NCBI RefSeq assembly: GCF_056712565.1
Contig: NZ_CM160072.1
Strand: one strand, 5' to 3'
DNA: 64,000 bases
The position numbers and the translations under genes are program-made. Below are positions 5,240-34,579 of this stretch, piece by piece; position 1 is the first letter of the stretch; the number at the start of each line of letters is the position of its first letter. The notes beneath the pieces were generated by a model. That model made no database searches, had not been told where the DNA came from, and worked only from the letters and a program-made list of their open reading frames with translations.

Positions 5240-6490
5240 ATGGAAAGTAAAGTAGTTGTTCCGGCACAAGGCAAGAAGATCACCCTGCAAAACGGCAAAC
5301 TCAACGTTCCTGAAAATCCGATTATCCCTTACATTGAAGGTGATGGAATCGGTGTAGATGTAACCCCAGCCATGCTGAAAGTGGTCGACGCTGCAGTTGA
5401 GAAAGCCTATAAAGGCGAGCGTAAAATCTCCTGGATGGAAATTTACACCGGTGAAAAATCCACACAGGTTTATGGTCAGGACGTCTGGTTGCCTGCTGAA
5501 ACCCTTGATCTGATTCGTGAATATCGCGTTGCCATTAAAGGCCCGCTGACCACTCCGGTTGGTGGCGGTATTCGCTCTCTGAACGTTGCCCTGCGCCAGG
5601 AACTGGATCTCTACATCTGCCTGCGTCCGGTACGTTACTATCAGGGCACTCCAAGCCCGGTTAAACACCCTGAACTGACCGATATGGTTATCTTCCGTGA
5701 AAACTCGGAAGACATTTATGCGGGTATCGAATGGAAAGCAGACTCTGCCGACGCTGAGAAAGTGATTAAATTCCTGCGTGAAGAGATGGGCGTGAAGAAA
5801 ATTCGCTTCCCGGAACATTGCGGTATCGGTATTAAGCCGTGTTCGGAAGAAGGCACCAAACGTCTGGTTCGTGCAGCGATCGAATACGCAATTGCTAACG
5901 ATCGTGACTCTGTGACCCTGGTGCACAAAGGCAACATCATGAAGTTCACCGAAGGCGCGTTTAAAGACTGGGGCTACCAACTGGCGCGTGAAGAATTTGG
6001 CGGTGAACTGATCGACGGCGGCCCGTGGCTGAAAGTTAAAAACCCGAATACCGGCAAAGAGATCGTCATTAAAGACGTGATTGCTGATGCATTCCTGCAA
6101 CAGATCCTGCTGCGTCCGGCTGAATATGATGTTATCGCCTGTATGAACCTGAACGGTGACTACATTTCTGACGCCCTGGCAGCGCAGGTTGGTGGTATCG
6201 GTATCGCCCCTGGCGCAAACATCGGTGACGAATGCGCCCTGTTTGAAGCCACCCACGGTACTGCGCCGAAATATGCCGGACAGGACAAAGTAAACCCAGG
6301 CTCTATTATTCTCTCCGCTGAGATGATGCTGCGCCATATGGGTTGGACTGAAGCGGCTGACCTGATTGTTAAAGGTATGGAAGGCGCAATCAATGCCAAG
6401 ACCGTAACCTATGACTTCGAACGTCTGATGGAAGGCGCTAAACTGCTGAAATGTTCAGAGTTTGGTGACGCGATCATCAAGAATATGTAA
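5240..6490 (+). CDS. icd: Isocitrate dehydrogenase (NADP); 3' ~165 bp is the prophage-adjacent copy of the att duplication
   Basis: 416 aa [41 protein letters not shown]...; classic Icd. Confidence 0.95.
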
Positions 6491-6541
6491 TCACTACATG
6501 TGTTAAATATTGAAACGGGCGTATAACACGCCCGTTGTTTT
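6327..6541. repeat. Left copy of the icd 3'-end direct repeat (attL side of prophage)
   Basis: About 215 bp here are repeated with a few mismatches at 53750..53966, including the icd stop codon and terminator hairpin. Confidence 0.85.
6513..6541 (+). terminator. icd rho-independent terminator
   Basis: Hairpin AAACGGGCGTATAACACGCCCGTT followed by GTTTT, 22 bp after the icd stop. Confidence 0.75.
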
Positions 6542-6557
6542 ATGATGATGTAAAATC

Positions 6558-6593
6558 TTCCCCAAAACTTTCCCCAAAACCCTTCCCCAAAAC
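6558..6593. repeat. Three tandem TTCCCCAAAAC repeats, candidate integrase arm-type binding sites
   Basis: TTCCCCAAAAC occurs three times with ~12 bp period between icd terminator and int; one further copy at 53621..53631. Confidence 0.5.
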
Positions 6594-6603
6594 TGGCTAT
6601 TTT

Positions 6604-7746
6604 CTATGCTGTTTTGATATCTACGATAATCCAGTCTTTACCACGATCATCATTGTATCGGTCGGTCATTTTTCTGGATTTATGGCCTAACAACTTTTGC
6701 GTATCCAGACCCTGTTCCCGATATAACCGTTCTGACAGAGATCGCTGCTCATGAAATGTGGGCGCAGTTCCTTGCTCCCATTTTATGCCACATTTTTCCC
6801 GGGCCTTTTTAAAAGCCGTTGTCAGAGTATTCGCAGAAACCTGGTCTCCTCTGTTTGCTTGAGAGGTAGTGTGACGGTAATGGACCAGATATTTACTAAC
6901 AACAGCATCCCTGCACTGAGATATAACTTCACGAAGGGTAATATTCAGAGCATCGCATTTCAGGTTAAGCGGAATAGCAAGTTTTGAACCGGTTTTTTCC
7001 TGAGTAATGTGCAACATGTCGTCCCATATATCAGAGAATTTCAAATTGCAGATATCGCCTAAACGTTGTCCAGTAACAAGAGCAAGTAGCATGCCGCATT
7101 TTAAATAGGGCTGCCGTCTGCTTACGCTGTCAAATATTGCCTGCCATTCGGGCAGTGACAATCTTTGGCGGTTTACTCGATTTCGTGGTTGTTTTGTTGC
7201 CTGCGCTGGGTTAAATCCTGGCGGAACATGTCCTGCGTGTTGTGCTTCTTTGAAGACGTCGATCAACACCATTCTCACGACTTGCGCCATCCTGTTATGA
7301 CCTTCAGCCTTTACAGCATCAATTATTTCGGCAATATCAAGTGCGGTAATATCCTTGAGGTGTTGCATTCCACAATGCTCACGGAAAAGACGAATGGGTT
7401 TGCCTTTTTGCCGATAGGAGTTGGGTCTTAGTTCATTATGTTGCAGCCTGTCCTCTTGGATAGAAATATATTTATCAAGCCATTCTGTCACCGTAATGTC
7501 TGAGCGCCTGCCTTTCATTCTTTCCAGACGCTCATTGACGCTTAATATTTGTCTGGTACGTTGTTCAGCAATAATGGTATTTGCTTCAGTAGCAACTTGT
7601 TTTGCTTCATTCTCATCAGTTCCTAAGCTATGAAAACGACCGGATAGTGGATGTTTGTATTGCCAATATACCTTTCCGGTTCGCTTATCTAATTTGCAAT
7701 ATAAATTGGGTATAGAGATTTTGTGAGATCGGGGTCTAGCAGCCAT
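6604..7746 (-). CDS. int: Phage integrase (tyrosine recombinase)
   Basis: 380 aa ORF directly beside the att repeat; C-terminal R..HxxR..Y-type catalytic region (LGHKSRKMTDRY); lambda-like int-xis arrangement. Confidence 0.88.
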   Translation of the reverse strand: MAARPRSHKISIPNLYCKLDKRTGKVYWQYKHPLSGRFHSLGTDENEAKQVATEANTIIAEQRTRQILSVNERLERMKGRRSDITVTEWLDKYISIQEDRLQHNELRPNSYRQKGKPIRLFREHCGMQHLKDITALDIAEIIDAVKAEGHNRMAQVVRMVLIDVFKEAQHAGHVPPGFNPAQATKQPRNRVNRQRLSLPEWQAIFDSVSRRQPYLKCGMLLALVTGQRLGDICNLKFSDIWDDMLHITQEKTGSKLAIPLNLKCDALNITLREVISQCRDAVVSKYLVHYRHTTSQANRGDQVSANTLTTAFKKAREKCGIKWEQGTAPTFHEQRSLSERLYREQGLDTQKLLGHKSRKMTDRYNDDRGKDWIIVDIKTA

Positions 7747-7972
7747 CAGCGATTATCCTTTGGAGTTTTGGGTTTGCGTTTATTGGGAGTTGCGGTTCTG
7801 CAAGCGTTCCTACAAAACGGGAATTTCGGTCAATCATCCAGTAGCGACCAACTTTTATAGCGGGTGGGGCCATCATTTTCCCTTGCGCGTATTTTTTCAG
7901 AACTCGCTCACTTGGTGCTAAGTCCCCAAATTCTTCTTTAGCCCAGTCCTGTAAAGTGATTAGTCGAGACAT
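7736..7972 (-). CDS. xis: Excisionase
   Basis: 78 aa ORF overlapping int start; MSRLITLQDWAKEEFG... resembles lambda-family Xis. Confidence 0.75.
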   Translation of the reverse strand: MSRLITLQDWAKEEFGDLAPSERVLKKYAQGKMMAPPAIKVGRYWMIDRNSRFVGTLAEPQLPINANPKLQRIIADGC

Positions 7973-8111
7973 TTGTCCTCCTCTTAGCTGCTGAGGGAGT
8001 TTGTGACCGATATATCTGACATGATATTAAGCTCATGGCAGGTACATCTCTTGACTGGTCATAGAGATAAATTTAATGCTGAGAAATGCAGTATTGAATT
8101 TATCAATTTTT

Positions 8112-8351
8112 CTATTTCCTGCGCATGTCACGTAACTTCTTAATGTGTTCTGCCGTTTCGATCTCTTCTGCTATCCGATCTGCATCAGCTTTATTCACAG
8201 GTTCAAAGTCATGATTAAAGCGGAACATGCTGGCGATACATGTTCTGCCTTTTCGGATGTAGTGAACTTTGTTGTGGGTAGAACGCAGGATTTTGCAGGG
8301 AGTGCCGTGGTGGTCGACGTACCAGGTGTTAGGGTCAATCACTCTGAACAT
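8112..8351 (-). CDS. Hypothetical phage early protein
   Basis: 79 aa ORF in the leftward early operon; no recognised domain. Confidence 0.4.
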   Translation of the reverse strand: MFRVIDPNTWYVDHHGTPCKILRSTHNKVHYIRKGRTCIASMFRFNHDFEPVNKADADRIAEEIETAEHIKKLRDMRRK

Positions 8352-8664
8352 TCTTGACCTTGTGTTGTGCGGATTGATATTCAGTGCTGATATTCACCTT
8401 TATAGCGAACACCTTTACCGGTTTATCGCCAAAGTGCGGATGTGTGATTGTCTTCACTTCATATCCGTCATACGGAACATCAATTCTGCGACTGGAATCG
8501 TCGCGCTTCGGATATCCCTTTGTGATAATCAGGCGGTCATATTCCCGGAACATAATTCGCTTATTCCAGTAGTCATTACACAAGCGATACTCTTCCGTTT
8601 TCTCTCCGCGAATCATGGCATCGAAGTATTCACTTTTAACAGCAAGTTGCAGGTTAGCCATCAC
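8335..8664 (-). CDS. Hypothetical protein, possibly ASCH/PUA-like
   Basis: 109 aa ORF MMANLQLAVKSEYFDAMIRGEKTEEYR...; pattern resembles ASCH domain proteins; assignment tentative. Confidence 0.45.
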   Translation of the reverse strand: MMANLQLAVKSEYFDAMIRGEKTEEYRLCNDYWNKRIMFREYDRLIITKGYPKRDDSSRRIDVPYDGYEVKTITHPHFGDKPVKVFAIKVNISTEYQSAQHKVKNVQSD

Positions 8665-8882
8665 TTAATCCCCCTTTGTTTGCGGATAAGCTCCAGATCT
8701 TGCTGGCAACTGGCGCAAGTCCGACAACCCTGAACGGCCAGGCGTCTTCGTTCATCTATCGGATCGCCACACTCACAACAATGAGTGGCAGATACAGCCA
8801 GGTAGTTCAGGCGGCGCATTTTTATTGCTGTGTTGCGCTGTAATTCTTCTATTTCTGATGCTGAATCAATGATGTCTGCCAT
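8661..8882 (-). CDS. TraR/DksA-family C4 zinc-finger protein
   Basis: 73 aa ORF with CxxC-n17-CxxC (CCECGDPIDERRRLAVQGCRTCASC), typical of phage TraR-like proteins. Confidence 0.7.
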   Translation of the reverse strand: MADIIDSASEIEELQRNTAIKMRRLNYLAVSATHCCECGDPIDERRRLAVQGCRTCASCQQDLELIRKQRGIK

Positions 8883-9268
8883 CTTTCATTAATCCCTGAA
8901 CTGTTGGTTAATACGCTTGAGGGTGAATGCGAACAATAAAAAAGGAGCCTGTAGCTCCCTGATAATTTTGCTTTTCATGTTCATCGTTCCTTAAAGACGC
9001 CGTTTAACATGCCGATTGCCAGGCTTAAATGAGTCGGTGTGAATCCCTTCAGCGTTACCGTTTCGCGGTGCTTCTTCAGTACGCTACGGCAAATGTCATT
9101 GACGTTTTTGGAAACTGCTGTCTGACTTTTTTGATTTCAGAATTAGCCTGACGGGCAATGCTGCGAAGGGCGTTTTCTTGCTGAGGTGTCACTGAACAAG
9201 CCCCATGTCGGCAAGCATAAGCACACAGAATATGAAGCCCGCTGCCAGAAAAATGCATTCAGTGGTTG

Positions 9269-9460
9269 TCATACCTGGTCTCTCTCATCTGCTTCTGCTT
9301 TCGCCACCATCATTTCCAGCTTTTGTGAAAGGGATGTGGCTAACGTATGAAATTCTTCGTCTGTTTCTGCTGGTATTGGCACAAACCTGACTCCAATTTG
9401 AGCAAGGCTATGTGCCAAATCAATACTCGTTCTTAACTCAACAGGAGATGCTTTGTGCAT
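9269..9460 (-). CDS. Hypothetical small phage protein
   Basis: 63 aa ORF in early-left operon; no recognised domain. Confidence 0.3.
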   Translation of the reverse strand: MHKASPVELRTSIDLAHSLAQIGVRFVPIPAETDEEFHTLATSLSQKLEMMVAKAEADERDQV

Positions 9461-9621
9461 ACCGCCCCCCGTTTATTATTTATCTCCTCAGCCAGCCGCT
9501 GGGCTTTCAGCGGATTTCGGATAACAGAAAGACCGTGAAATACCCAGCCTCGCTTTGTAACGGAGTAGACGAAAGTGATCGCGCCTACCCGGATATTATC
9601 GTGAGGATGGGTCATCGCCAT
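9433..9621 (-). CDS. Hypothetical small phage protein
   Basis: 62 aa ORF immediately upstream of exo, overlapping its neighbour. Confidence 0.3.
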
Positions 9622-10292
9622 TGCTCTCCAAATACAAAACCAATTTCAGCCAGTGCTTCGTCCATTTTTTCGATGAACTCCGGCACCATCTCGTCAAAAC
9701 TCGCCATGTACTTTTCATCCCGCTCAACCACGACATAATGCAGGCCTTCACGCTTCATTCGTGGGTCATAGTTGGCAAAGTACCAGGCATCTTTTCGTGT
9801 CACCCACATGCTGTACTGCACCTGGGCCATGTAAGCCGACTTTATGGCCTCGAAACCACCGAGCCGGAACTTCATGAAATCCCGGGAGGTAAACGGGCAT
9901 TTCAGCTCAAGGCCATTGCCGTCACTGCATAAACCATCGGGAGAGCAGGCGGTGCGCATACTTTCGTCGCGATAGATGATCGGGGATTCAGTAACATTCA
10001 CGCCGGAAGTGAATTCAAACAGGGTTCTGGCGTCGTTCTCGTACTGTTTTCCCCACGCCAGCGCCTTAGCATTAACTTCCGGAGCCACACCGGTGCAAAC
10101 CTCAGCCAGCAGGGTGTGGAAGTAGGACATTTTCATGTCAGGCCACTTCTTTCCTGAGCGGGGCTTTGCTATCACGTTGTGAACTTCTGAAGCGGTGATG
10201 ACGCCGAGCCGTAATTTGTGCCATGCATCATCCCCCTGTTCGACAGCTCTCACGTCGATCCCGGTACGCTGCAGGATAATGTCCGGTGTCAT
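9612..10292 (-). CDS. exo: Lambda exonuclease (Red alpha)
   Basis: 226 aa; [54 protein letters not shown]... which I recognise as essentially identical to lambda Exo. Confidence 0.95.
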
Positions 10293-11074
10293 GCTGCCAC
10301 CTTCTGCTCAGTGGCTTTCTGTTTCAGGAATCCAAGAGCTTTCACTGCTTCGGCCTGTGTCAGTTCTGACGATGCGCGAATGTCGCGGCGAAATATCTGG
10401 GAACAGAGCGGCAATAAGTCGTCATCCCATGTTTTGTCCAGGGCAATCAGCAGAGTGTTAATCTCCTGCATGGTTTCATCGTTAACCGGAGTGATGTCGC
10501 GTTCCGGCTGACGTTCTGCAGTGTATGCGGTATTTTCGACAATGCGCTCGGCTTCATCCTTGTCATAGATACCAGCAAATCCGAAGGCCAGACGGGCACA
10601 CTGAATCATGGCTTTATGCCGTAACATCCGTTTGGGATGCGACTGCCACGGCCCCGTGATTTCTCTGCCTTCGCGGGTTTTGAATGGTTCGCGGCGGCAT
10701 TCATCCATCCACTCGGTAACGCAGATCGGATGATTGCGGTCTTTGCGGTAAATCCGGCATGTACATGATTCATTGTCCTGCTCAAAGTCCATACCATCAA
10801 ACTGCTGGTTTTCATTGATGATGCGGGACCAGCCATCAACGCCCACCACCGGAACAATGCCGTTCTGCTTATCAGGGAAGGCGTAAATTTCTTTCGTCCA
10901 CGGATTAAGGCCGTACTGGTTGGCGACGATCAACAATGCGATGAACTGCGCATCGCTGGCATCACCTTTAAATGCCGTCTGGCGAAGAGTGGTGATCAGT
11001 TCCTGTGGGTCGACAGAATCCATGCCGACACGTTCAGCCAGCTTCCCTGCCAGCGTTGCGAGTGCTGTACTCAT
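10289..11074 (-). CDS. bet: Recombinase Bet (Red beta)
   Basis: 261 aa; [89 protein letters not shown]... Confidence 0.95.
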
Positions 11075-11079
11075 CCGTT

Positions 11080-11376
11080 TTATACCTCTGAATCAATATC
11101 AGCCTGATGGTGAGCAATGGTTTCAACTATGTACCGGATGTGTTCTGCCATGCGCTCCTGAAACTCAACATCGTCATCAAACGCACGGGTAATGGCTTTT
11201 TTGCTGGCCCCGTGGCGTTGTAAATGATCGATGCATAGCGATTCAAACAGGTGCTGGGGCAGGCCTTTTTCCATGTCGTCTGCCAGTTCTGCCTCTTTCT
11301 CTTCACGGGCGATCTGCTGGTAGTGACGCGCCCAGCTCTGAGCCTCAAGACGATCCTGAATGTAATAAGCGTTCAT
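11080..11376 (-). CDS. gam: RecBCD inhibitor Gam (short form)
   Basis: 98 aa; [56 protein letters not shown]... Confidence 0.93.
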
Positions 11377-11451
11377 GGCTGAACTCCTGAAAATGGCTGT
11401 GAAAATATCGCCCGCGAAATGCCAGGCTGATTAGGAAAACAGGAAAGGGGG

Positions 11452-11595
11452 TTAGTGAATGCTTTTGCTTGATCTCAGTTTCAGTATTAATATCCATTTT
11501 TTATAAGCGTCGACGGCCTCACGAAACATCTTTTCATCGCCAATAAAAGTGGCGATAGTGAATTTAGTCTGGATAGCCATAATTGTTTGATCCAT
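11452..11595 (-). CDS. kil: Host-killing protein Kil
   Basis: 47 aa [47 protein letters not shown] within the 89 aa tracked ORF; overlaps cIII as in lambda. Confidence 0.85.
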
Positions 11596-11728
11596 TTTTT
11601 GGGACTCCTGGCTGATTAAGTATGTCGATAAGGCGTTTCCATCCGTCACGTAATTTACGGGTGATTCGTTCAAGTAAAGATTCGGAAGGGCAGCCAGCAA
11701 CAGGCCACCCTGCAATGGCATATTGCAT
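11564..11728 (-). CDS. cIII: Anti-FtsH regulator CIII
   Basis: Hand translation gives [54 protein letters not shown] (54 aa); below the 60 aa ORF-track cutoff. Confidence 0.85.
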   Translation of the reverse strand: MQYAIAGWPVAGCPSESLLERITRKLRDGWKRLIDILNQPGVPKNGSNNYGYPD

Positions 11729-11800
11729 GGTGTGCTCCTTATTTATACATAACGAAAAACGCCTCGAGTGAAGCGTAATTGGTATGCGGTAACGCCGCGC

Positions 11801-12169
11801 TCAGGCGGCCTTGATAGTCATATCATCTGAATCAAATATTCCTGATGTATCGATATCGGTAATTCTTATTCCTTCACTACCATCCATTGGAGGCCATCCT
11901 TCCTGACCATTTCCATCATTCCAGTCGAACTCACACACAACACCATATGCATTTAAGTCGCTTGAAATTGCTATAAGCAGAGCATGTTGCGCCAGCATGA
12001 TTAATACAGCATTTAATACAGAGCCGTGTTTATTGAGTCGGTATTCAGAGTCTGACCAGAAATTATTAATCTGGTGAAGTTTTTCCTCTGTCATTACGTC
12101 ATGGTCAATTTCAATTTCTATTGATGCTTTCCAGTCGTAATCAATGATGTATTTTTTGATGTTTGACAT
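11801..12169 (-). CDS. ea10: Lambda Ea10-like protein
   Basis: 122 aa ORF in the lambda ea10 position; I recall this sequence as lambda Ea10. Confidence 0.8.
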   Translation of the reverse strand: MSNIKKYIIDYDWKASIEIEIDHDVMTEEKLHQINNFWSDSEYRLNKHGSVLNAVLIMLAQHALLIAISSDLNAYGVVCEFDWNDGNGQEGWPPMDGSEGIRITDIDTSGIFDSDDMTIKAA

Positions 12170-12351
12170 CTATTCATATCCTCATAGATAAAAAATCGCC
12201 CTCACACTGGAGGGCAAAGAAGATTTCCAATAATCAGAACAAGTCGGCTCCTGTTTAGTTACGAGCGACATTGCTCCGTGTATTCACTCGTTGGAATGAA
12301 TACACAGTGCAGTGTTTATTCTGTTATTTATGCCAAAAATAAAGGCCACTA

Positions 12352-12552
12352 TCAGGCAGCTTTGTTGTTCTGTTTACCAAGTTCTCTGGCAATCATTGCC
12401 GTCGTTCGTATTGCCCATTTATCGACATATTTCCCATCTTCCATTACAGGAAACATTTCTTCAGGCTTAACCATGCATTCCGATTGCAGCTTGCATCCAT
12501 TGCATCGTTTGAATTGTCCACACCATTGATTTGTATCAATAGTCGTAGTCAT
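12352..12552 (-). CDS. ral: Restriction alleviation protein Ral
   Basis: 66 aa; MTTTIDTNQWCGQFKRCNGCKLQSECMVKPEEMFPVMEDGKYVDKWAIRTTAMIARELGKQNNKAA. Confidence 0.92.
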   Translation of the reverse strand: MTTTIDTNQWCGQFKRCNGCKLQSECMVKPEEMFPVMEDGKYVDKWAIRTTAMIARELGKQNNKAA

Positions 12553-12765
12553 ACGGATAGTCCTGGTATTGTTCCATCACATCTTGAGGATGCTCTTCGA
12601 ACTCTTCAAATTCTTCTTCCATATATCACCTTAAATAGTGGATTGCGGTAGTAAAGATTGTGCCTGTCTTTTAACCACATCAGGCTCGGTGGTTCTCGTG
12701 TACCCCTACAACGAGAAATCGGATAAACTCTATTCACCCCTACAGAGAGCAAAAGAGAAACGCCG

Positions 12766-13347
12766 ATGAACAACTCATGGTGGCAGGAACTAATGCATTT
12801 TTTCCTGCAAGGAATGACACTTAAACAGTTGATTCATATGCTAATCATCCTGATCATATTGATTATTGTTATGCCGGTAAGCGTAAAAGAATGGATAAAC
12901 CTGCATAATCCAGAAATCCTTCCTCATTACTGGATGTATTACATCCTGTTGTTTTGCGTTAGCTATGTGCTTAACGGCGTTGTTAATTCCGCTTATCACG
13001 CTGTGACTGAAAGAATTGAGGTATTCGCTGCTCAGAAGCGCAAATCTAAAGAAGAAAAATATGTGCAAGATTTGTTTGATTCGTTAACTCTTGGAGAAAG
13101 AGCGTATTTGGCATTCGCTGTAGCCGCTAATAACCAGCTACAAACGGAAAAGGGCGCTCATGAATCAATTTCATTGCTCAAAAAAGGACTCCTCGTTCGA
13201 AGGCCTCCTGCTGTTGGATATCCTGATACCGACCGTTTCGTTATCCCTGAAAGCTATAGACATGAGTGCTACATTAGGTTTGCCGGGAAGGCAGACAGCC
13301 TTATGGATGAACTTATCGCTCAGGATAAGCATGGCAAAAACAAGTAA
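12766..13347 (+). CDS. sieB: Superinfection exclusion protein B
   Basis: 193 aa membrane protein (LIHMLIILIILIIVMPV) in the lambda sieB position and orientation. Confidence 0.85.
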   Translation: MNNSWWQELMHFFLQGMTLKQLIHMLIILIILIIVMPVSVKEWINLHNPEILPHYWMYYILLFCVSYVLNGVVNSAYHAVTERIEVFAAQKRKSKEEKYVQDLFDSLTLGERAYLAFAVAANNQLQTEKGAHESISLLKKGLLVRRPPAVGYPDTDRFVIPESYRHECYIRFAGKADSLMDELIAQDKHGKNK

Positions 13348-13363
13348 TTAGCAAATGAATTTA

Positions 13364-13636
13364 TCATCTCGCCGTCAGTTGTTTTGATTTCCGGTAGCCT
13401 GCCGCGTAAAGAGCTACGTTCGGAAGACAAGTTGAACCTTCATATTTTCTGGTCAACGTTGTCAGAGTTATCACTTCTGCTCTCATTGCTGGTTTGAGCT
13501 TGCATTGCAAGACCACTCGTGAAGGGGTTGGCCTGTGTAGCTTGTCGGAGCTGATCGCCTCCTGACTTTGCAGATTTGCGCGACGAGCTCTACGGCGAGA
13601 AGCTGCGGTGCCTTTAAATTCTGTTTTTCTGGACAT
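13364..13636 (-). CDS. N: N-like transcription antiterminator
   Basis: Start chosen at MSRKTEFKGTAASRRRARRANLQSQEA (arginine-rich motif near N-terminus); lies just downstream of nutL on the leftward transcript. Confidence 0.7.
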   Translation of the reverse strand: MSRKTEFKGTAASRRRARRANLQSQEAISSDKLHRPTPSRVVLQCKLKPAMRAEVITLTTLTRKYEGSTCLPNVALYAAGYRKSKQLTAR

Positions 13637-13733
13637 GGATTCCTCCCGAATAAACTTTGGCGATGCAATCTCGAAGCTCCTCCTGAGACGGTTGCTTCGG
13701 CATTGCATCCCACAGCTTATGTGGTTGGGTGAT

Positions 13734-13779
13734 CTGGCTTTTCAGCCACGTAGTCGAGAGTCGACGTTGTTTAAAGAGC
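13734..13779 (-). promoter_or_regulatory. nutL (boxA GCUCUUUAAACAACG and boxB hairpin GGCUGAAAAGCC)
   Basis: Reverse complement of 13765..13779 matches boxA consensus; 13734..13745 forms a GAAA-loop hairpin resembling the nutR boxB of this phage. Confidence 0.6.
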
Positions 13780-14040
13780 CTGCCAGTCTGTTCCATTTGG
13801 CTTCCAGCGTCCTGCTGACGGTTAAATAGTACGATATGTACTTTACAAGATCAATACAATTTGTTGTAAGTTGGCGTGGTTTTTTATAACGCTTTGTATT
13901 TAATAGTGTTGTTTTTTAGCGTGGATGTATTGCCTCGGCGATGTAAGGAGAGATCAGAATTGCGTGGTTTAGTGGGTTGCATCTATTTATTTTTCAATAA
14001 ATATAATTGGTTATGTGTTTTTAGGTGGGCGAACGTGAGG

Positions 14041-14067
14041 CAAAGAAAACCCGGCGCTGAGGCCGGG
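14041..14067 (-). terminator. Rho-independent terminator after the two-gene operon
   Basis: Minus-strand hairpin CCCGGCCTCAGCGCCGGG followed by TTTTCTTT, 5 bp after the stop of the 250 aa gene. Confidence 0.7.
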
Positions 14068-14072
14068 TTGTA

Positions 14073-14825
14073 TTATGCTGCAAGTCTCTTAACCCAAGTC
14101 TCTCTTTTGGAGAATGGTAGAACTTGGCTTGATTCATGGAAGAGTAAGGAGAGTTGTTGCATTTGATCACCAATTGCTTCGCTGTCTATAACAACAAATC
14201 TGTTGTTATACTCCTCACTTGAAGCTTTAAGATCAATTAGTTTCCCAAGCAATGAGTAAGCACTATTCCAGCTTCCTCCGTGTTTCACGCTTGATGTAAA
14301 AACGTATTTAGGTATGTCGGTTTTTATTGTTACAGGGACGGTAATTTGATGTCCACTCAAGCCATATACGTTTTCACGAAGAGAAAGTGCGTCTCTAAGC
14401 TCTGTGTGATATAGATAATCAATAACCATACTTTCAAACTTTTCAGCTTGAACTGGCTGATACCAGTCTAACGACAAAGTTGATGCGAGTATACCAGCTC
14501 TAATTATGTTCGATGTAATCGCACCGACATCCTTTTCTGTTGCCCAAGCAATGATTTCTCCTCGAGCATTGAGTTCTGCGCCTTCTTTAAGCAGTAATTG
14601 TCGTATCTCATCAAGTCGTTTTTTGGTAAGCGAGATCCCTCTTGCCTCCATATTCATTAAGGCATCGCATCTGTCACTAACTAAATACCTACCATTGACT
14701 TCACGGATAAAGGCACCGACATGCTCTCCATCATCACAGTAAGTGAATGGACTGATAATTCTCAAGGTCTTGCCTATTGGATGGCATTCGAAACCTAGTT
14801 GTGAGATCACTGTTGAGCACATCAT
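14073..14825 (-). CDS. Unknown protein (250 aa), distal gene of immunity-region operon
   Basis: ORF MMCSTVISQLGFECHPIGKTLRIISPFTYCDDGEH...; AT-rich (~35% GC); start overlaps upstream gene stop by 4 bp; no motif I recognise. Confidence 0.65.
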   Translation of the reverse strand: MMCSTVISQLGFECHPIGKTLRIISPFTYCDDGEHVGAFIREVNGRYLVSDRCDALMNMEARGISLTKKRLDEIRQLLLKEGAELNARGEIIAWATEKDVGAITSNIIRAGILASTLSLDWYQPVQAEKFESMVIDYLYHTELRDALSLRENVYGLSGHQITVPVTIKTDIPKYVFTSSVKHGGSWNSAYSLLGKLIDLKASSEEYNNRFVVIDSEAIGDQMQQLSLLFHESSQVLPFSKRETWVKRLAA

Positions 14826-15379
14826 ATTCCAAACCCCATTTGCCCCGACTCATCTTCAAGCGGTAAAGGTATTCTCCCAGAGTAAGTTATGTTCAGATGT
14901 TTACAGAAGTAATTCCAATACCCTACCAGGTCATCTGGGTTTATGTCATCTTCGATTGGAAACGCTATTCTATCACTATAGTATCCAGCTTCTTCATAGT
15001 ATACATGGTAGTGAGCACCGTAAATGATATCTTGGTACTTCGGATGATCGACCTTGTAACTATTCGTGTGTTTGTCAAAGTGATAGGTATCTACCGCGAA
15101 AACCCTCTTGTTATGATAGAAAGCAATAATATTTATTTTAGGGTAAGAAATCGGGTCATCAGGTTCTGAATCCTGATCTGGTTTCCATTTCAGTTCAAAC
15201 TTTAGCCCTTGTATAGGTATACAATCCTCATCCAAGGGGATGATATGGGCTTGTAGCCACATATCAGAGCGACTTGGTTTCTGTTTCCATTTAACGCCAG
15301 AAAAGTTAACTATTTTTTTACAATAAAGTACTTTATCAACTTCTACTTGGCTTGGCTGATAATCATCTATTTTTGCCAA
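14822..15379 (-). CDS. Unknown protein (185 aa), proximal gene of immunity-region operon
   Basis: ORF MAKIDDYQPSQVEVDKVLYCKKIVNF...; begins 39 bp after the cI stop; AT-rich; no motif I recognise. Confidence 0.65.
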   Translation of the reverse strand: MAKIDDYQPSQVEVDKVLYCKKIVNFSGVKWKQKPSRSDMWLQAHIIPLDEDCIPIQGLKFELKWKPDQDSEPDDPISYPKINIIAFYHNKRVFAVDTYHFDKHTNSYKVDHPKYQDIIYGAHYHVYYEEAGYYSDRIAFPIEDDINPDDLVGYWNYFCKHLNITYSGRIPLPLEDESGQMGFGI

Positions 15380-15418
15380 TGTTTACCGCCCTGTAAATTG
15401 TAGATAAAAGTGGTTTCA

Positions 15419-16078
15419 TCACCCAAACGTCTCTTCAGGCCATTGGCTGGCGATAACTTTCCCCACAACGGAACAACTCTCATTGCATGGGATCATTGGG
15501 TATTGTGGGTTTAGTGGCTGTAGAAACACCTGACCGCTATCCCTGATCAGTTTCTTGAAGGTAAATTCATCACCACCAAGTCTGGCTATGCAGAAATCGC
15601 CGGGCTCAACAGCTTGCTCAGGGTCAACCAGAATTAACATCCCGTCAGGAAAGCTGGGTTTGGAACCTGTTGGTGCGGTCATTGAGTTACCTTCAACCTC
15701 AAGCCAGAATGCAGAGTCACTGGCTTTTTTGGTTGTGCTTACCAATCTCTCCGCATCGCCTTTGGTAAAGGTTCTGAGTTCTGGAGAGAACATCCCAGCC
15801 TGAACATGAGAAAAAACAGGGTACTCATATTGTTTTTTAACTGGGGCCGATGAGTATTCGCCAACAGGTGAAAATGTCCCGTCGTGGTTGAATGATATGT
15901 TATCAATACCAAGGTATTTAAACACCACACCAATATCACTAAGAGATGGATGACGAGATCCGCGCAACCAGTGTCCAATCCCACCCTGCGTCATACCTAG
16001 CTCTTCGGCTAACTTCTCTTGAGTTATGCCGAGCTCTTTCATTCTGGATCTAGCCAGTTCATACCATTTCATTTTCAT
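15419..16078 (-). CDS. cI: CI-like prophage repressor (HTH plus S24 LexA-like peptidase domain)
   Basis: [40 protein letters not shown]... and C-terminal autocleavage-type domain; start chosen at ATG with AAGGA RBS (tracked ORF extends to 16120). Confidence 0.85.
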
Positions 16079-16189
16079 GTCCTTATTATTACGCTCTGTA
16101 CTGGAACCATCCATGCACAATGTGTATTTTTACTTGTATTCGCAAAGTACATATTGTATTTTTTTATTCGTGTTTACTATGGAGGGCAT
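16079..16189. promoter_or_regulatory. Divergent pRM/pR region with OR operators
   Basis: 111 bp AT-rich intergenic region between divergent cI and cro, containing short inverted repeats (e.g. GTACTT...AAGTAC). Confidence 0.55.
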
Positions 16190-16405
16190 ATGAGCAACCT
16201 ACGAAAATATCGAGAGTCACTGAATATCTCTCAAACAACACTTGCTAAGGCAGTTGGATGCACACAGGGAGCTATCGGACATTGGGAATCTGGTCGTCGC
16301 TTCCCAGACCTTAAAACATGCCGTGCTCTTGTTGCGTGCCTAAACAAGTTAGGCGCAAAAGTCAGTCTTGATGACGTGTTCCCGCCGGAACACAAAGCCG
16401 CTTAA
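16190..16405 (+). CDS. cro: Cro-like HTH repressor
   Basis: 71 aa MSNLRKYRESLNISQTTLAKAVGCTQGAIGHWESGRR...; GGAGG RBS; divergent from cI. Confidence 0.8.
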   Translation: MSNLRKYRESLNISQTTLAKAVGCTQGAIGHWESGRRFPDLKTCRALVACLNKLGAKVSLDDVFPPEHKAA

Positions 16406-16415
16406 TAAGCGGATC

Positions 16416-16461
16416 CGCTCTTTGTAACAACGGACATTCGTCCTACGTCGCTGAAAAGCGA
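16416..16461 (+). promoter_or_regulatory. nutR (boxA CGCTCTTTGTAACAA and boxB hairpin TCGCTGAAAAGCGA)
   Basis: boxA-like sequence then GAAA-loop hairpin just downstream of cro, same geometry as nutL. Confidence 0.6.
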
Positions 16462-16546
16462 GTTCCAAGATATCTGACCAACTAAGGCCATATGCGTTTC
16501 CACGCATACCTTTCAACTAACTATTCACTATTGGAAATCTTAAGAA

Positions 16547-16843
16547 ATGGAAAGAACAAGTTACAGCAAACTATCACAGCGTGACGTTGATCGCGCAGAA
16601 ACAGATTTACTTATCAATCTGTCAGCTATTACCCAGCGCGGTCTGGCAAAGATGATTGGCTGTCATGAATCGAAGATAAGCAGAACGGACTGGAGATTTA
16701 TTGCTTCGGTCTTGTGTGCTTTCGGAATGGCATCAGACATCAGTCCGATTAGCAGGGCTTTTAAGTATGCGCTTGATGGACTCACCAATAAAAAACGCCC
16801 GGCGGCAACCGAGCGTTCTGAACAAATCCAGATGGAATTCTGA
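16547..16843 (+). CDS. cII: Transcriptional activator CII
   Basis: 98 aa; C-terminus ...ILTNKKRPAATERSEQIQMEF matches what I recall of lambda CII. Confidence 0.85.
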   Translation: MERTSYSKLSQRDVDRAETDLLINLSAITQRGLAKMIGCHESKISRTDWRFIASVLCAFGMASDISPISRAFKYALDGLTNKKRPAATERSEQIQMEF

Positions 16844-16862
16844 GGTCATTACTGGATCAATC
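16787..16862 (-). ncRNA. oop: oop antisense RNA
   Basis: Reverse complement GATTGATCCAGTAATGACCTCAGAATTCCATCTGGATTTGTTCAGAACGCTCGGTTGCCGCCGGGCGTTTTTTATT closely matches lambda oop including its terminator. Confidence 0.8.
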
Positions 16863-16875
16863 CACAGGAGTCATT

Positions 16876-17775
16876 ATGACAAATACAGCAAAAATACTCA
16901 ACTTCTGCAGAGGTAACTTTGCCAAACAGGAGCGTAATGTGGCAGATCTCGATGATGGTTACGCCAGACTATCAAATATGCTGCTTGAGGCTTATTCAGG
17001 CGCAGATCTGACCAAGCGACAGTTTAAAGTGCTGCTTGCCATTCTGCGTAAAACCTATGGATGGAATAAACCAATGGACAGAATCACCGATTCTCAACTT
17101 AGCGAGATTACAAAGTTACCCGTCAAACGGTGCAATGAAGCCAAGTTAGAACTCGTCAGAATGAATATTATCAAGCAGCAAGGCGGCATGTTTGGACCAA
17201 ATAAAAACATCTCAGAATGGTGTATCCCTCAAAACGAGGGAAAATCCCCTAAAACGAGGGATAAAACATCCCTCAAATTGGGGGATTGCTATCCCTCAAA
17301 ACAGGGGGACACAAAAGACACTATTACAAAAGAAAAAAGAAAAGATTATTCGTCAGAGAATTCTGGCGAATCCTCTGACCAGCCAGAAAACGACCTTTCT
17401 GTGGTGAAACCGGATGCTGCAATTCAGAGCGGCAGCAAGTGGGGGACAGCAGAAGACCTGACCGCCGCAGAATGGATGTTTGACATGGTGAAGACCATCG
17501 CGCCATCAGCCAGAAAACCGAATTTTGCAGGGTGGGCTAACGATATCCGCCTGATGCGTGAACGTGACGGACGTAACCATCGCGACATGTGTGTACTGTT
17601 CCGCTGGGCATGCCAGGACAACTTCTGGTCCGGTAACGTGCTGAGCCCGGCCAAACTCCGCGACAAGTGGACCCAGCTCGAAATCAACCGTAACAAGCAA
17701 CAGGCAGGTGTGACAGCCTGCAAACCAAAACTCGACCTGACAAACACTGACTGGATTTACGGGGTGGATTTATGA
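16876..17775 (+). CDS. O: Replication initiator O
   Basis: 299 aa; MTNTAKILNFCRGNFAKQERNVADLDDGYARLSNMLLEAYSGADL...; contains ori iterons. Confidence 0.95.
   Translation: MTNTAKILNFCRGNFAKQERNVADLDDGYARLSNMLLEAYSGADLTKRQFKVLLAILRKTYGWNKPMDRITDSQLSEITKLPVKRCNEAKLELVRMNIIKQQGGMFGPNKNISEWCIPQNEGKSPKTRDKTSLKLGDCYPSKQGDTKDTITKEKRKDYSSENSGESSDQPENDLSVVKPDAAIQSGSKWGTAEDLTAAEWMFDMVKTIAPSARKPNFAGWANDIRLMRERDGRNHRDMCVLFRWACQDNFWSGNVLSPAKLRDKWTQLEINRNKQQAGVTACKPKLDLTNTDWIYGVDL
17224..17350. repeat. ori-lambda: four iterons plus AT-rich region inside O
   Basis: Four ~19 bp ATCCCTCAAAACGAGGGA-type repeats then AAAGAAAAAAGAAAAGATTATT. Confidence 0.9.
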
Positions 17776-18473
17776 AAAACATCGCCGCACAGATGGTTAA
17801 TTTTGACCGTGAGCAGATGCGTCGGATCGCCAACAACATGCCGGAACAGTACGACGAAAAGCCGCAGGTACAGCAGGTAGCGCAGATCATCAACGGTGTG
17901 TTCAGCCAGTTACTGGCAACTTTCCCGGCGAGTCTGGCTAACCGTGACCAGAACGAACTGAACGAAATCCGCCGCCAGTGGGTTCTGGCTTTCCGGGAAA
18001 ACGGGATCACCACAATGGAACAGGTTAACGCAGGAATGCGCGTAGCCCGTCGGCAGAATCGACCATTTCTGCCATCACCCGGGCAGTTTGTTGCATGGTG
18101 CCGGGAAGAAGCATCCGTTATCGCCGGACTGCCAAACGTCAGCGAGCTGGTTGATATGGTTTACGAGTATTGCCGGAAGCGAGGCCTGTATCCGGATGCA
18201 GAGTCTTATCCGTGGAAATCGAACGCGCACTACTGGCTGGTTACCAACCTGTACCAGAACATGCGGGCCAATGCGCTGACTGACGCGGAATTACGACGCA
18301 AGGCTGCCGATGAACTGACCTGTATGACAGCGCGAATTAACCGTGGTGAGACGATACCTGAACCAGTAAAACAACTTCCTGTCATGGGCGGCAGACCTCT
18401 AAATCGTGTTCAGGCGCTGGCGAAGATCGTAGAAATTAAAGCTAAGTTAGGACTGAAAGGAGCAAGTGTATGA
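17772..18473 (+). CDS. P: Replication protein P (helicase loader)
   Basis: 233 aa; MKNIAAQMVNFDREQMRRIANNMPEQYDEKPQVQQVAQIINGV... Confidence 0.95.
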   Translation: MKNIAAQMVNFDREQMRRIANNMPEQYDEKPQVQQVAQIINGVFSQLLATFPASLANRDQNELNEIRRQWVLAFRENGITTMEQVNAGMRVARRQNRPFLPSPGQFVAWCREEASVIAGLPNVSELVDMVYEYCRKRGLYPDAESYPWKSNAHYWLVTNLYQNMRANALTDAELRRKAADELTCMTARINRGETIPEPVKQLPVMGGRPLNRVQALAKIVEIKAKLGLKGASV

Positions 18474-18760
18474 CGGGCAAAGAGGCAATTATTCATTACC
18501 TGGGGACGCATAATAGCTTCTGTGCGCCGGACGTTGCCGCGCTAACAGGCGCAACAGTAACCAGCATAAATCAGGCCGCGGCTAAAATGGCACGGGCAGG
18601 TCTTCTGGTTATCGAAGGTAAGGTCTGGCGAACGGTGTATTACCGGTTTGCTACCAAGGAAGAACGGGAAGGAAAGATGAGCACGAACCTGATTTTTAAG
18701 GAGTGTCGCCAGAGTGCCACGATGAAACGGATATTGGCGGTATATGGAGTTAAAAGATGA
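18470..18760 (+). CDS. ren: Ren (Rex exclusion relief protein)
   Basis: 96 aa; MTGKEAIIHYLGTHNSFCAPDVAALTGATVTSINQAAAKMARAGLLVIEGKVWRTVYYRF... Confidence 0.9.
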   Translation: MTGKEAIIHYLGTHNSFCAPDVAALTGATVTSINQAAAKMARAGLLVIEGKVWRTVYYRFATKEEREGKMSTNLIFKECRQSATMKRILAVYGVKR

Positions 18761-18833
18761 CCATCTACATCACTGAGCTAATAACAGGCCTGCAGGTAAT
18801 CGCAGGCCTTTTTATTTGGGGGAGAGGGAAGTC

Positions 18834-19274
18834 ATGAAAAAACTAACCTTTGAAATTCGATCTCCGGCACATCAGCAAAACGCTATTCACGCAGTACAGC
18901 AAATCCTTCCAGACCCAACCAAACCAATCGTAGTAACCATTCAGGAACGCAACCGCAGCTTAGACCAAAACAGGAAGCTATGGGCCTGCTTAGGTGACGT
19001 CTCTCGTCAGGTTGAATGGCATGGTCGCTGGCTGGATGCAGAAAGCTGGAAGTGTGTGTTTACCGCAGCATTAAAGCAGCAGGATGTTGTTCCTAACCTT
19101 GCCGGGAATGGCTTTGTGGTAATAGGCCAGTCAACCAGCAGGATGCGTGTAAGCGAATTTGCGGAGCTATTAGAGCTTATACAGGCATTCGGTACAGAGC
19201 GTGGCGTTAAGTGGTCAGACGAAGCGCGACTGGCTCTCGAATGGAAAGCGCGATGGGGAGATCGGGCTGCATGA
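18834..19274 (+). CDS. ninB: NinB recombination protein
   Basis: 146 aa from MKKLTFEIRSPAHQQNAIHAVQQILPDPTKPIVVTIQERNRSLDQNRKLWA... Confidence 0.88.
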   Translation: MKKLTFEIRSPAHQQNAIHAVQQILPDPTKPIVVTIQERNRSLDQNRKLWACLGDVSRQVEWHGRWLDAESWKCVFTAALKQQDVVPNLAGNGFVVIGQSTSRMRVSEFAELLELIQAFGTERGVKWSDEARLALEWKARWGDRAA

Positions 19275-19798
19275 CTATCAAATCAAATACGCCAGCACAC
19301 GACAAGGACTGCTGGCAAACGCCGCTTTGGCTTTTTGATGCACTGGATATTGAGTTTGGATTCTGGCTGGATTCGGCAGCGAGCGACAAAAATGCTCTGT
19401 GCGCTCACTGGCTAACTGAGGACGACGACGCGCTCAATTCTGAGTGGGTAAGCCACGGTGCAATCTGGAATAACCCACCGTACAGCAATATCAGGCCGTG
19501 GGTGGAAAAAGCCGCTGAGCAGTGTATACAACAGCGACAGACGGTAGTGATGCTTGTGCCAGAGGATATGTCTGTCGGATGGTTCAGCAAGGCTCTGGAG
19601 AGTGTTGACGAAGTTCGTATTATCACTGATGGACGGATTAATTTTATCGAACCATCGACAGGGCTGGAGAAGAAGGGAAACAGCAAAGGCTCCATGCTGC
19701 TGATTTGGCGACCGTTCATCAGTCCTCGACGGATGTTTACTACCGTATCCAAAGCGGCATTGATGGCGATCGGGCAGGGCGTCAGGAGGGCTGCATGA
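19271..19798 (+). CDS. Phage orphan DNA N6-adenine methyltransferase
   Basis: 175 aa from [25 protein letters not shown]...; contains the NPPY catalytic motif (IWNNPPYSN); start overlaps ninB stop (ATGA); occupies the lambda ninC slot. Confidence 0.8.
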
Positions 19799-19971
19799 GA
19801 CGACAGCGACGAAGCATCACCGACATAATCTGCGAAAACTGCAAATACCTTCCAACGAAACGCTCCAGAAATAAACGCAAGCTAATCCCAAAAGAATCTG
19901 ACGTAAAAACCTTCAATTACACAGCCCACCTGTGGGATATCCGGTGGCTAAGATATCGTGCGAGGAAATGA
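19795..19971 (+). CDS. ninE: NinE
   Basis: 58 aa [58 protein letters not shown]. Confidence 0.85.
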
Positions 19972-20315
19972 CAATGGATTATTCACAGTTAAGTGATTTT
20001 GAAATTAACAGAATGGTAGGAGACATAATTTTTAAAGGCCTTTGGGCAAGTAAACCGGAAACATCAGGGAATAACACCAACAAATGGTATTACGGAAATG
20101 CTGATACAACTTTTGAGCCATTAAATCATTTGCCTGACTACTGCAATGATCCGAGCGCTTCATGGCCGATTATTGAGAAATACAGGATTTCTATCTTAGA
20201 CCAGTTAACTGAATGGTGTGTGGATGCAAAAGGCGTAAGCCCAATATTTGATACCAGACCTCTCCGCGCCGCCATGATTGTCTTTCTCCTGATGCAGGAG
20301 GCCAATAATGCTTAG
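19968..20315 (+). CDS. Hypothetical nin-region protein
   Basis: 115 aa from [24 protein letters not shown]...; start overlaps ninE stop (ATGA); no recognised domain. Confidence 0.5.
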
Positions 20316-20525
20316 CCCATCTCAATCCCTTCAATACCTGAAAGAAAGCATAGAGCGGGCTTCAATGTGCACAGAGTGGATTCTATCTAGGTTTAGCGCA
20401 TACAGAAGATTGCCGGTAAAGGGCATGCCAAGCAAGTCGATGCTGCATATGCAAAAGAATGCGCGCTGGAAGGTATGGCGAGAACACAGGTTATGTGGCT
20501 GAAAGAGGGGGTTATTAAGGCGTGA
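20308..20525 (+). pseudogene. Mosaic remnant: NinF-like N-terminus joined to YbcO-like C-terminus in another frame
   Basis: Frame 1 starts [18 protein letters not shown] (NinF-like) then diverges; a second frame ends ...[29 protein letters not shown] which matches the C-terminus I recall for DLP12 YbcO. Confidence 0.5.
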
Positions 20526-20884
20526 ATACCTACAGCATCACATTACCCTGGCCTCCGAGCAATAATCGCTATTACCGCCATAATCGCGGGCGCACGCACG
20601 TCAGCGCAGAGGGGCAGGCATACCGCGATAACGTCGCCCGAATCATTAAAAACGCAATGCTGGATATCGGCCTGGCTATGCCTGTGAAAATCCGCATTGA
20701 GTGCCACATGCCGGATCGCCGTCGCCGTGACCTGGATAATCTGCAAAAAGCCGCTTTTGACGCACTCACTAAAGCAGGTTTCTGGCTGGATGATGCTCAG
20801 GTCGTTGATTACCGCGTTGTGAAGATGCCTGTTACCAAAGGTGGGAGGCTGGAACTGACCATCACCGAAATGGGGAATGAATGA
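20522..20884 (+). CDS. rusA: Holliday junction resolvase RusA
   Basis: 120 aa; [48 protein letters not shown]... Confidence 0.92.
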
Positions 20885-21021
20885 TGTTTGAGTTTAATAT
20901 GGCAGAACTTCTTCGCCACCGCTGGGGGCGTCTGCGCTTATATCGTTTCCTCGGTTCTGTTTTGACCGATTACCGAATACTGAAGAATTACGCCAAAACC
21001 CTGACAGGAACAGGAGTATGA
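20881..21021 (+). CDS. ylcG: YlcG-like small protein
   Basis: 46 aa [46 protein letters not shown]; below ORF-track cutoff; same position as ylcG after rusA in DLP12. Confidence 0.7.
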
Positions 21022-21106
21022 AGTCAGAGATAACAATCAACTAATACTGTTTTGTTGATTTTTGCTTGTAATTGGCGTTCTGGTCTGATTTTTGTGGAGT
21101 AAGTTG

Positions 21107-21490
21107 ATGCGTGATATTCAGATGGTTCTTGAGCGTTGGGGTGCGTGGGCGGCTAATAATCATGAAGATGTGACCTGGTCGTCCATTGCCGCCGGTTTTA
21201 AGGGATTAATTCCTTCAAAAGTAAAATCTCGCCCGCAATGTTGTGACGATGACGCGATGATCATTTGCGGGTGCATGGCCCGTCTGAAAAAGAACAACAG
21301 CGATTTACACGATTTATTAGTAGATTATTATGTATGTGGTATGACATTCATGTCACTGGCAAGTAAGCATTGCTGCTCGGATGGTTATATCGGGAAAAGG
21401 TTACAGAAGGCTGAGGGCATAATTGAAGGGATGTTAATGGCATTAGATATCCGGTTAGATATGGATATCGTTGCTAATAATTCTAATTGA
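21107..21490 (+). CDS. quuD: Late gene antiterminator Q (QuuD/phage 82-type)
   Basis: 127 aa from [60 protein letters not shown]...; GGAG RBS. Confidence 0.88.
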
Positions 21491-21626
21491 TATGCAATTG
21501 TTTACTAAAAGTTATTAAAAATGGGGCGTGGAAACGCCCCCAAAATAAAGGGTAATATATAACAGAAGGTTTATATAGTAAGAAGCAAGGTAGTGCTTCT
21601 AAAGGAAGTGGCTTGAGGGCTCCACT

Positions 21627-21669
21627 TATATGTTGCGGAGGCAAAGCCTCCCGCAACATATCTTTTTCG
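21627..21669. terminator. tR'-like terminator downstream of Q; also 10 bp past the porin stop
   Basis: Imperfect hairpin ATATGTTGCGGAGGCAAAGCCTCCCGCAACATAT followed by CTTTTTCG on the plus strand. Confidence 0.65.
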
Positions 21670-21678
21670 TAAGTCAGA

Positions 21679-24520: not shown

Positions 24521-24551
24521 AGCTGCCCATATCGATGGGCAACTCATGCAA

Positions 24552-34568: not shown

Positions 34569-34579
34569 AAGGGGGATGT

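Follow-up and report, generated by a model that had tools for sequence, protein, structure and literature searches.

Two junctions in the window (the 64,000-nucleotide stretch of contig NZ_CM160072.1 analyzed here) are very probably attL and attR of a phage 21-type lambdoid prophage that is integrated inside icd. The phage 21/e14-icd arrangement is known, having been described since 1989-1997, and the island has been catalogued. The window offers a clean and complete case of a temperate phage that lands inside a gene of an essential pathway, leaves its host unharmed, and carries the replacement part along.

The 3′ end of icd is present twice

Across the 64-kb window, the sole direct repeat of at least 40 nt is a 215-nt segment of icd, found at 6327-6541 and again at 53750-53964. 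The two copies align without gaps at 96% identity, in agreement with the preliminary description, according to which the icd 3′ end occurs twice with a handful of mismatches. In the pairwise alignment, the sequences are unrelated up to 6326/53749, become identical from 6327/53750 onward, and lose their identity past the T-tract of a terminator. The repeat thus defined comprises the last 164 nt of icd (codons 363-416 and the stop codon, at 6488-6490 in the left copy and 53911-53913 in the right copy), followed by a hairpin terminator. Between the copies we counted eight mismatches and one extra T in the T-tract of the right copy. Seven of the eight mismatches are coding, and every one of these is at a third codon position and synonymous; the eighth lies 3 nt past the stop codon. 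A terminator scan placed a G+C-rich hairpin of 9 pairs at 6514-6536, with a T-run extending to 6541, and RNA folding predicts the hairpin to be stable in both copies. The features of the locus are as follows.

5240..6490, plus strand: functional icd, 416 codons plus stop; a hybrid, with 5240-6326 bacterial and 6327-6490 prophage-supplied
6327..6541, plus strand: attL replacement cassette, the last 164 nt of icd with its stop codon and an intrinsic terminator, carrying free-phage alleles
53750..53913, plus strand: displaced native icd 3′ fragment, a pseudogene without its own start codon or promoter
53937..53965, plus strand: native icd terminator; same hairpin, T-run longer by one T
6327..53749: prophage unit, 47,423 bp from the repeat spacing

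The prophage had been given a length of ∼47.6 kb, a figure that holds only when both copies of the repeat are counted; measured by the repeat spacing, the unit is the 47,423 bp listed above. An Rfam search at the junctions returned no match, and no tRNA genes are found there; a tRNA-type att site is therefore ruled out.

Reconstruction of attP and attB

Joining the prophage ends in silico (53150-53749 plus 6327-6700) produces an attP that is colinear with the phage 21 genome (OL657228) over 974 bp, gap-free and at 98.7% identity. Compared with phage Perceval, the reconstructed attP shows 2 mismatches over ∼584 bp. In the virion genomes of Perceval, 4A7, ev017, and 2E9, attP lies mid-genome, and the predicted excision junction therefore exists in packaged DNA. 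Conversely, joining the flanks (5700-6326 plus 53750-54600) restores icd-ymgL-ycgX as an uninterrupted locus, which the complete genomes of SF-166, SCU-122, and 19AR1321 match at 100% identity. The prophage boundary proposed from the sequence is borne out by both reconstructions, and the icd loci of these three prophage-free strains, a comparison named beforehand as a check, have contiguous flanks.

The empty icd locus is covered in one piece, at at least 80%, in 2,897 of 5,426 complete Escherichia coli genomes, and the left junction together with int and xis is present at at least 80% coverage in 1,307 complete E. coli genomes. The late half of the prophage with the right junction was found in 360 genomes; the best complete-genome match of this half is 99.8% identical, and none reaches 100%.

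By Pfam matches and the annotation of strain S88, the prophage has a lambdoid gene order that begins with int-xis and leads to the tail genes, and its cargo comprises a porin, bor/iss, and sitABCD (Bor/Iss at 24552-24893, PF06291, E=1.7e-30; sitDCBA at 48383-51832). S88 is colinear with the window at 99.5-99.98% identity. Its RefSeq annotation runs from int-xis through exo/bet/gam, N, cI, cro, cII, O, P, and the nin genes to Q, the lysis genes, terminase, head and tail genes, and sitABCD. The S88 prophage ends in a partial "isocitrate/isopropylmalate family dehydrogenase" pseudogene, the counterpart of 53750-53913. The sitABCD genes adjoin the P arm in the window, as they do in ev017, 2E9, and Perceval. 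The reconstructions thereby set exact limits for an extraintestinal pathogenic E. coli (ExPEC) prophage with virulence-associated cargo, namely the Sit iron/manganese transporter, Iss/Bor, and the porin, and such precise boundaries are useful in annotation, curing experiments, and typing.

An element that is likewise integrated at icd, measures 46-49 kb, and carries Iss and the Sit system is known from ExPEC as "PAI-icd" and has been catalogued for S88, APEC O1, UTI89, 536, RS218, IHE3034, and LF82 (PMC7545054). The NC-SV prophage also occupies the phage 21 site in icd (PMC12803456). Nothing substantive sets the element in the window apart from the PAI-icd and NC-SV-like prophages.

That the element is counted among the pathogenicity islands of many ExPEC strains (PMC7545054) would fit a different reading, in which the junctions are relics, the element is a fixed, non-excising island, and the repeats and core are without present function. 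The S88 annotation, moreover, gives replication gene O and one tail-fibre gene as frameshifted or partial, and a related icd prophage reached an induction of only 7-11% and yielded no plaques (PMC10111431). In the window, however, both genes are intact (O at 16876-17775, 299 aa; the tail-fibre ORF at 45644-47710, 688 aa), as are int, xis, and all four copies of the repeat motif described below. Virion-derived GenBank genomes are 99.7-99.9% identical over the sit-attP region, and for the same related icd prophage the formation of attB and attP after mitomycin C was measured (PMC10111431). We therefore consider a fixed island unlikely and favor an integrated prophage flanked by attachment sites that are probably still functional.

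Integrase and excisionase

The genes expected to serve these sites lie directly inside attL.

6604..7746, minus strand: int, lambda-type tyrosine integrase of 380 aa (PF09003 and PF00589)
7736..7972, minus strand: xis, excisionase of 78 aa (PF07825 Exc, E=6.7e-6)

Int combines an N-terminal arm-binding domain (PF09003 Arm-DNA-bind_1, E=1.8e-28; Int residues 1-71 matching profile positions 1-72 of 74) with a catalytic domain that follows it (PF00589, E=8.9e-24). The protein aligns over its full length to the lambda Int structures (1z1b/5j0n, E=2e-55), and the catalytic residues R, K, H, R, H, and Y are conserved: the Int segments VTGQRLGD, EKTGSK, FHEQRSLS, LLGHKS, and RYNDDRG align to lambda R212, K235, H308/R311, H333, and Y342, respectively (1z1b). 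Like the heterobivalent integrase of lambda, the Int of the window therefore has the same domain order and catalytic residues, and as in lambda, xis adjoins int. The product of xis is annotated as an excisionase in both phage 21 and S88.

The segment 6327-8000 is 98.0-99.2% identical to its counterparts in ∼28 lambdoid phage genomes. Phage 21 (M61865, OL657228) shares the insertion point of the window prophage in icd. Its icd′-int-xis segment is 98.6% identical to 6327-8000 over 1,674 bp, with orthologous Int and Xis, and it has the same three P′ repeats, the same P-arm repeat, and the same cassette of icd pseudogene plus terminator. The phage 21 record also gives the order seen here, namely an "ICDH-like" pseudogene, a terminator, attP, a tyrosine integrase, and an excisionase.

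Candidate arm-type and IHF sites

Short direct repeats lie on both sides of the prophage ends.

6558-6568, 6570-6580, and 6583-6593, plus strand: three tandem TTCCCCAAAAC, candidate P′ arm-type integrase sites
53621..53631, plus strand: TTCCCCAAAAT, candidate arm-type site in the P arm, located 129 bp upstream of the core block
53650..53662, plus strand: AATCAAACGGTTG, match to the IHF consensus WATCAANNNNTTR, candidate site

The three P′ repeats start at +231, +243, and +256 from the beginning of the core block, and all four copies have the same orientation. The exact 10-mer TTCCCCAAAA that they share occurs at these four places only in the window, compared with ∼0.1 occurrences expected by chance; further matches with one mismatch, at 15459 and 33587, break the 10-mer core. 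Three tandem repeats and one further copy at 53621..53631 had been described, with coordinates that are right, but the right-arm copy differs from the others at its last base. The P′ repeats are invariant in 7 free-phage attPs, and the P-arm repeat is kept in 4A7/3W although the P arm of these phages has otherwise diverged at many positions.

The IHF-consensus match follows the P site by 29 bp and precedes the core by 100 bp. It is the one match in the 773-bp reconstructed attP, compared with 5 in the whole window on both strands, and IHF would probably occupy it.

The overall layout resembles that of lambda, where the arm sites of attP are arranged as P1, P2 / core / P′1-P′3. Here, three tandem arm sites are found on the int side, and one arm site plus the IHF-like site are found on the opposite side. 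Unlike in lambda, the core is inside a protein-coding gene, and ∼200 bp of gene-replacement sequence separate it from the P′ arm sites. Also unlike lambda, which has two, a single P-arm site is visible; a search for a second P-arm repeat found only a reverse-strand candidate with 2 mismatches at 53674-53683, which we judged to be a chance match. The outermost repeats span 396 bp (53621 to 6593), whereas a functional lambda attP measures ∼240 bp; the attP owes its unusual length to the gene-replacement cassette lying between core and P′ arm. Wang and colleagues (1997) reportedly placed the minimal attP of phage 21 between 366 and 418 bp, a length that takes in the outermost repeated dodecamers.

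A close structural parallel is provided by e14, the cryptic prophage at icd/icdC in E. coli K-12, a case that goes back to Hill et al. 1989 in the summary given in PMC6379469. This 15-kb defective remnant uses the same attB position and likewise brings along a substitute 3′ end of icd with a terminator. Its P′ arm contains three TTATCAAAA at +234, +245, and +258, as against the TTCCCCAAAA positions given above; its P-arm motif lies at −127 from its own core, compared with −129 here. An IHF-consensus match follows the e14 P site by 28 bp and precedes the core by 99 bp, a near-identical offset to that in the window. The e14 Int is homologous to the Int of the window, including an arm-binding domain, with 60% identity. 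Phage 21 and e14 show poor cross-excision. With the motif TTCCCCAAAA rather than TTATCAAAA and an Int only 60% identical to IntE, the window prophage works like e14 without being the e14 element.

It is very unlikely, in our judgment, that the att sites are correctly assigned while the TTCCCCAAAAC repeats serve some other role, such as binding of Xis, Fis, or another accessory factor or a function at the 3′ end of the int transcript. The repeats do lie directly downstream of int on the transcribed strand, starting 10 nt past the int stop codon, and the P arm has one copy of the motif only. However, RNA folding of the int 3′ region gives no unusual stability (z = −1.0), and the three tandem P′ copies together with the P copy mirror the arrangement of the lambda arm sites. 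In e14, a different motif occupies the same four positions alongside a 60%-identical Int with a diverged arm-binding domain. The phage 21 GenBank record, furthermore, annotates the TTCCCCAAAAC repeats as attP subsites (OL657228: an attP of 3 subsites P1P2P3, consensus YYTTCCCCAAAA). The earlier suggestion that the repeats are consistent with arm-type sites is thus strengthened by their geometry and conservation, by the e14 parallel, and by the arm-binding domain of Int. We regard the repeats as putative arm-type sites that Int probably binds.

We also considered whether the native flank at 53966-54010 retains a remnant of an e14-like arm (GTTATAAAAT, CGTATCAAAAG). When up to one mismatch is allowed, the 9-mer turns up 36 times across the window, and the resemblance is therefore not significant.

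Phage and native copies of icd and the position of the crossover

Which of the two icd copies belongs to the phage was read from a first alignment of six sites (attL, attR, phage 21 attP, SF-166 attB, and the attL and attR of K-12 e14) and from a second alignment, in which six further free-phage attPs were added. The right copy, attR, agrees with the empty-site allele throughout the block and further out. The left copy, attL, has the alleles of the 4A7, 3W, and Perceval attPs at 6343, 6355, 6358, 6385, 6397, and 6484, and it matches the same three attPs at the base following the stop codon and in T-tract length. Sequence to the left of 53750 corresponds to the phage P arm, and sequence to the right of 6541 corresponds to the phage P′ arm, into which, and on into int, the left copy runs directly. 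The left copy thus carries phage alleles and the right copy the empty-site allele, and the working icd therefore ends in phage DNA. Both parts of the original proposal hold: the functional icd has a phage-supplied 3′ end, shown by the free-phage attP alleles of the left copy, and 53750..53913 is the displaced original, identical to the icd 3′ end of the empty site in SF-166.

Although the left copy equals the native K-12 icdC allele at the first 16 variable sites, the probability of a reversed assignment (left native, right phage-borne) or of an ordinary segmental duplication is practically nil, the right copy and its flank being 100% identical to empty sites and both versions being already refuted by the attP and attB reconstructions and the multi-phage alignment.

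The crossover can be confined to a short block at the start of the homology.

6327..6342: attL crossover block, 16 bp, TGCTGCGCCATATGGG, from the start of homology to the first phage/native difference
53750..53765: attR crossover block, 16 bp, from the same alignments

Strand exchange must, as judged from the alignments, have occurred within TGCTGCGCCATATGGG (6327-6342), because homology starts at 6327 and the first difference between phage and native sequence is at 6343; this bound assumes that no later gene conversion took place between the two icd copies. The annotated start of e14 in K-12 maps to 6326/6327 of the window. Phage 21 itself carries the native-like bases C/C/A at 6343, 6355, and 6358, and the bound therefore rests on Perceval, 4A7, and 3W.

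Two variants might narrow the crossover further. At the 5′ edge of the block, phages of the 2E9 group read TGTTACGCC, which would place the overlap at 6332 or later, and a difference between the attL and attR of K-12 at 6337 (CAC versus CAT) would put the crossover before that position. Jointly, these variants leave only 5 bp, and at least one of them therefore arose after integration; we dropped this refinement on account of the conflicting bounds. A dyad-symmetry scan for core-type inverted repeats around any 7-bp overlap, covering 6317-6346 in both attB and attP, gave a best score of 5/9, which is within background.

Proposed mechanism of integration

In the free phage, attP lies next to int, and its P arm contributes one TTCCCCAAAA site and the IHF-like site. 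A short core follows within TGCTGCGCCATATGGG, identical to icd codons 363-368, and past the core ∼200 bp copying the rest of icd and its terminator lead to the P′ arm with its three tandem TTCCCCAAAAC. The N-terminal domain of Int probably binds the arm repeats and its C-terminal domains the core, and strand exchange by Int, with attP and the icd of the chromosome as partners, would take place inside the 16-bp block. Integration cuts icd 164 nt before its end and joins the 5′ part to the phage-borne 3′ end and terminator, so that a full-length, unchanged Icd is still made. The original 3′ end of icd is left behind as a dead fragment 47.4 kb away, and excision by Int and Xis would exactly reverse the integration. 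The exchange presumably uses a 7-bp overlap, and this prophage is presumably still inducible.

For integration at icd in general, an identity block of ∼250 bp between the att sites has been described and explained by a replacement sequence in attP, through which the target gene stays functional (PMC10111431; PMC7192596).

The hybrid icd gene and variation of the cassette

The 416-residue protein encoded by the hybrid icd is identical to that of the reconstructed native gene, and icd is annotated under the same accession, WP_000444487.1, in the lysogen S88 and in SF-166, where the site is empty. The window cassette differs in this respect from that of e14, which alters Icd residues. We compared 12 copies of the icd fragment (eight 21-type phage-borne copies, the e14 copy, and three native copies). 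Among these copies, 24 of the 54 codons vary, 20 of them synonymously only, and the sole amino-acid change among the eight 21-type phage copies is T370V in ev207. The free phage does not express the fragment, a pseudogene, and yet the fragment is kept translatable, as expected if it completes a needed gene in every lysogen.

The cassettes are mosaics, with 31 variable sites. The K-12 icdC-like stretch of the window cassette noted above extends from 6329 to 6403 and is followed by phage-type alleles; the host of this prophage is a B2-type strain. The phage 21 cassette is a different allele, with TGC AGC for Cys-Ser in place of the TGT TCA found here, and its first three diagnostic sites are of the B2-native type. 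The cassettes of ev207, ev017, and 2E9 each differ again. Free phages have at least five different mosaic alleles. This mosaicism points to repeated exchange between phage and host within the 215-bp homology. Phage-host exchange at icd had already been deduced in the 1990s from the population genetics of this gene.

It is possible, and we suggest this tentatively, that the last 54 codons of icd circulate as a phage-borne cassette and that the "native" 3′ ends are themselves earlier phage replacements. In that case, it would be prophage traffic, and not point mutation, that determines which allele this part of a core metabolic gene has. Downstream of icdC and its terminator, K-12 has an iraM-containing segment of ∼815 bp and, past it, a second, decayed icd terminator; the arrangement resembles a scar left when an older element inserted at the same site.

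Mosaic icd 3' ends and the K-12 attachment site

The icd 3' end supplied by the phage (window 6327-6490) is itself a mosaic. At its first 16 variable sites (window 6329-6403), it carries the allele of the "native" icdC of K-12 (16417-16491 of the MG1655 locus, L006), the icd end displaced there by e14. Beyond these sites, it changes over to phage-type alleles. Other mosaics of the icd end are found in each of phage 21, ev207, ev017, and 2E9. This mixture of phage-borne and native alleles suggests, at the level of sequence, that icd ends have been exchanged repeatedly between phages and chromosomes.

Variation also extends into the 16-bp core block, the presumed crossover region. In free phages of the 2E9 group, the 5' edge of the attP core block reads TGTTACGCC in place of TGCTGCGCC (phage 2E9 locus, L012; corresponding to window 6329-6331). 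This group comprises 11 of the 25 phage records listed, with matches that begin at query base 6. The change converts a CTG leucine codon to TTA and is synonymous, and it constitutes a heterology to attB, the empty icd site, within the presumed crossover block.

In K-12 MG1655 (L006 16579-17500), an ∼815-bp segment containing iraM comes after icdC and its terminator. On the 3' side of the iraM segment, the icd terminator recurs in degenerate form (about 87% identity, near L006 17445-17500) and continues into the sequence found immediately after icd in B2 strains. The iraM segment has the appearance of a scar left at this same site by an older insertion.

Immunity region and accessory genes

Regulatory and accessory features of the prophage (window coordinates)
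11683-11741, minus strand: Lambda_thermo, the Rfam cIII thermoregulator
14073-15379, minus strand: two-gene pair, directly downstream of the repressor gene
15419-16120: cI-like repressor gene
21679-22821, minus strand: OmpC-like porin gene, after Q
24552-24893, minus strand: gene for a Bor/Iss lipoprotein, following the lysis genes
48383-51832, minus strand: sitDCBA, iron/manganese ABC transporter, after the tail-fibre genes and before the P arm
52519-53289, plus strand: 256-amino acid ORF, in the interval from sitA to the P arm, at the b-region position adjoining attP

The gene pair next to the cI-like repressor gene takes the place that rexA/rexB occupy in lambda. It encodes a 250-amino acid DUF1828 protein and a 185-amino acid protein, and it matches a PADLOC candidate anti-phage defence pair (PDC-M24B, full length, E = 4.7e-10; PDC-M24A, partial, E = 4.8e-4). 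Judged by these profile matches, the pair may serve as a defence cassette in the immunity region. The cIII thermoregulator was matched over its full length (88.5 bits, E = 3e-20) and was the only Rfam family to reach its gathering score in the window.

Toward the right end of the prophage, the sit block adjoining attP is shared with the virion genomes ev017, 2E9, 1H12, Perceval, and PhiR63_2 at 99.7-99.9% identity. The 256-amino acid ORF that lies beyond sitA had no match in Pfam or PADLOC; its conserved counterpart in phage 21 is CPT_21_31, a hypothetical protein.

Integrity of the prophage copy

The replication gene O (window 16876-17775, 299 amino acids) and the side tail-fibre ORF (window 45644-47710, 688 amino acids) are both intact in the window, whereas RefSeq marks their counterparts in the colinear E. 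coli lysogen S88 as frameshifted or partial. On this evidence, the prophage copy in the window looks less decayed than that of S88. Within O, S88 is 67 bp shorter than the window at about 17240-17290.
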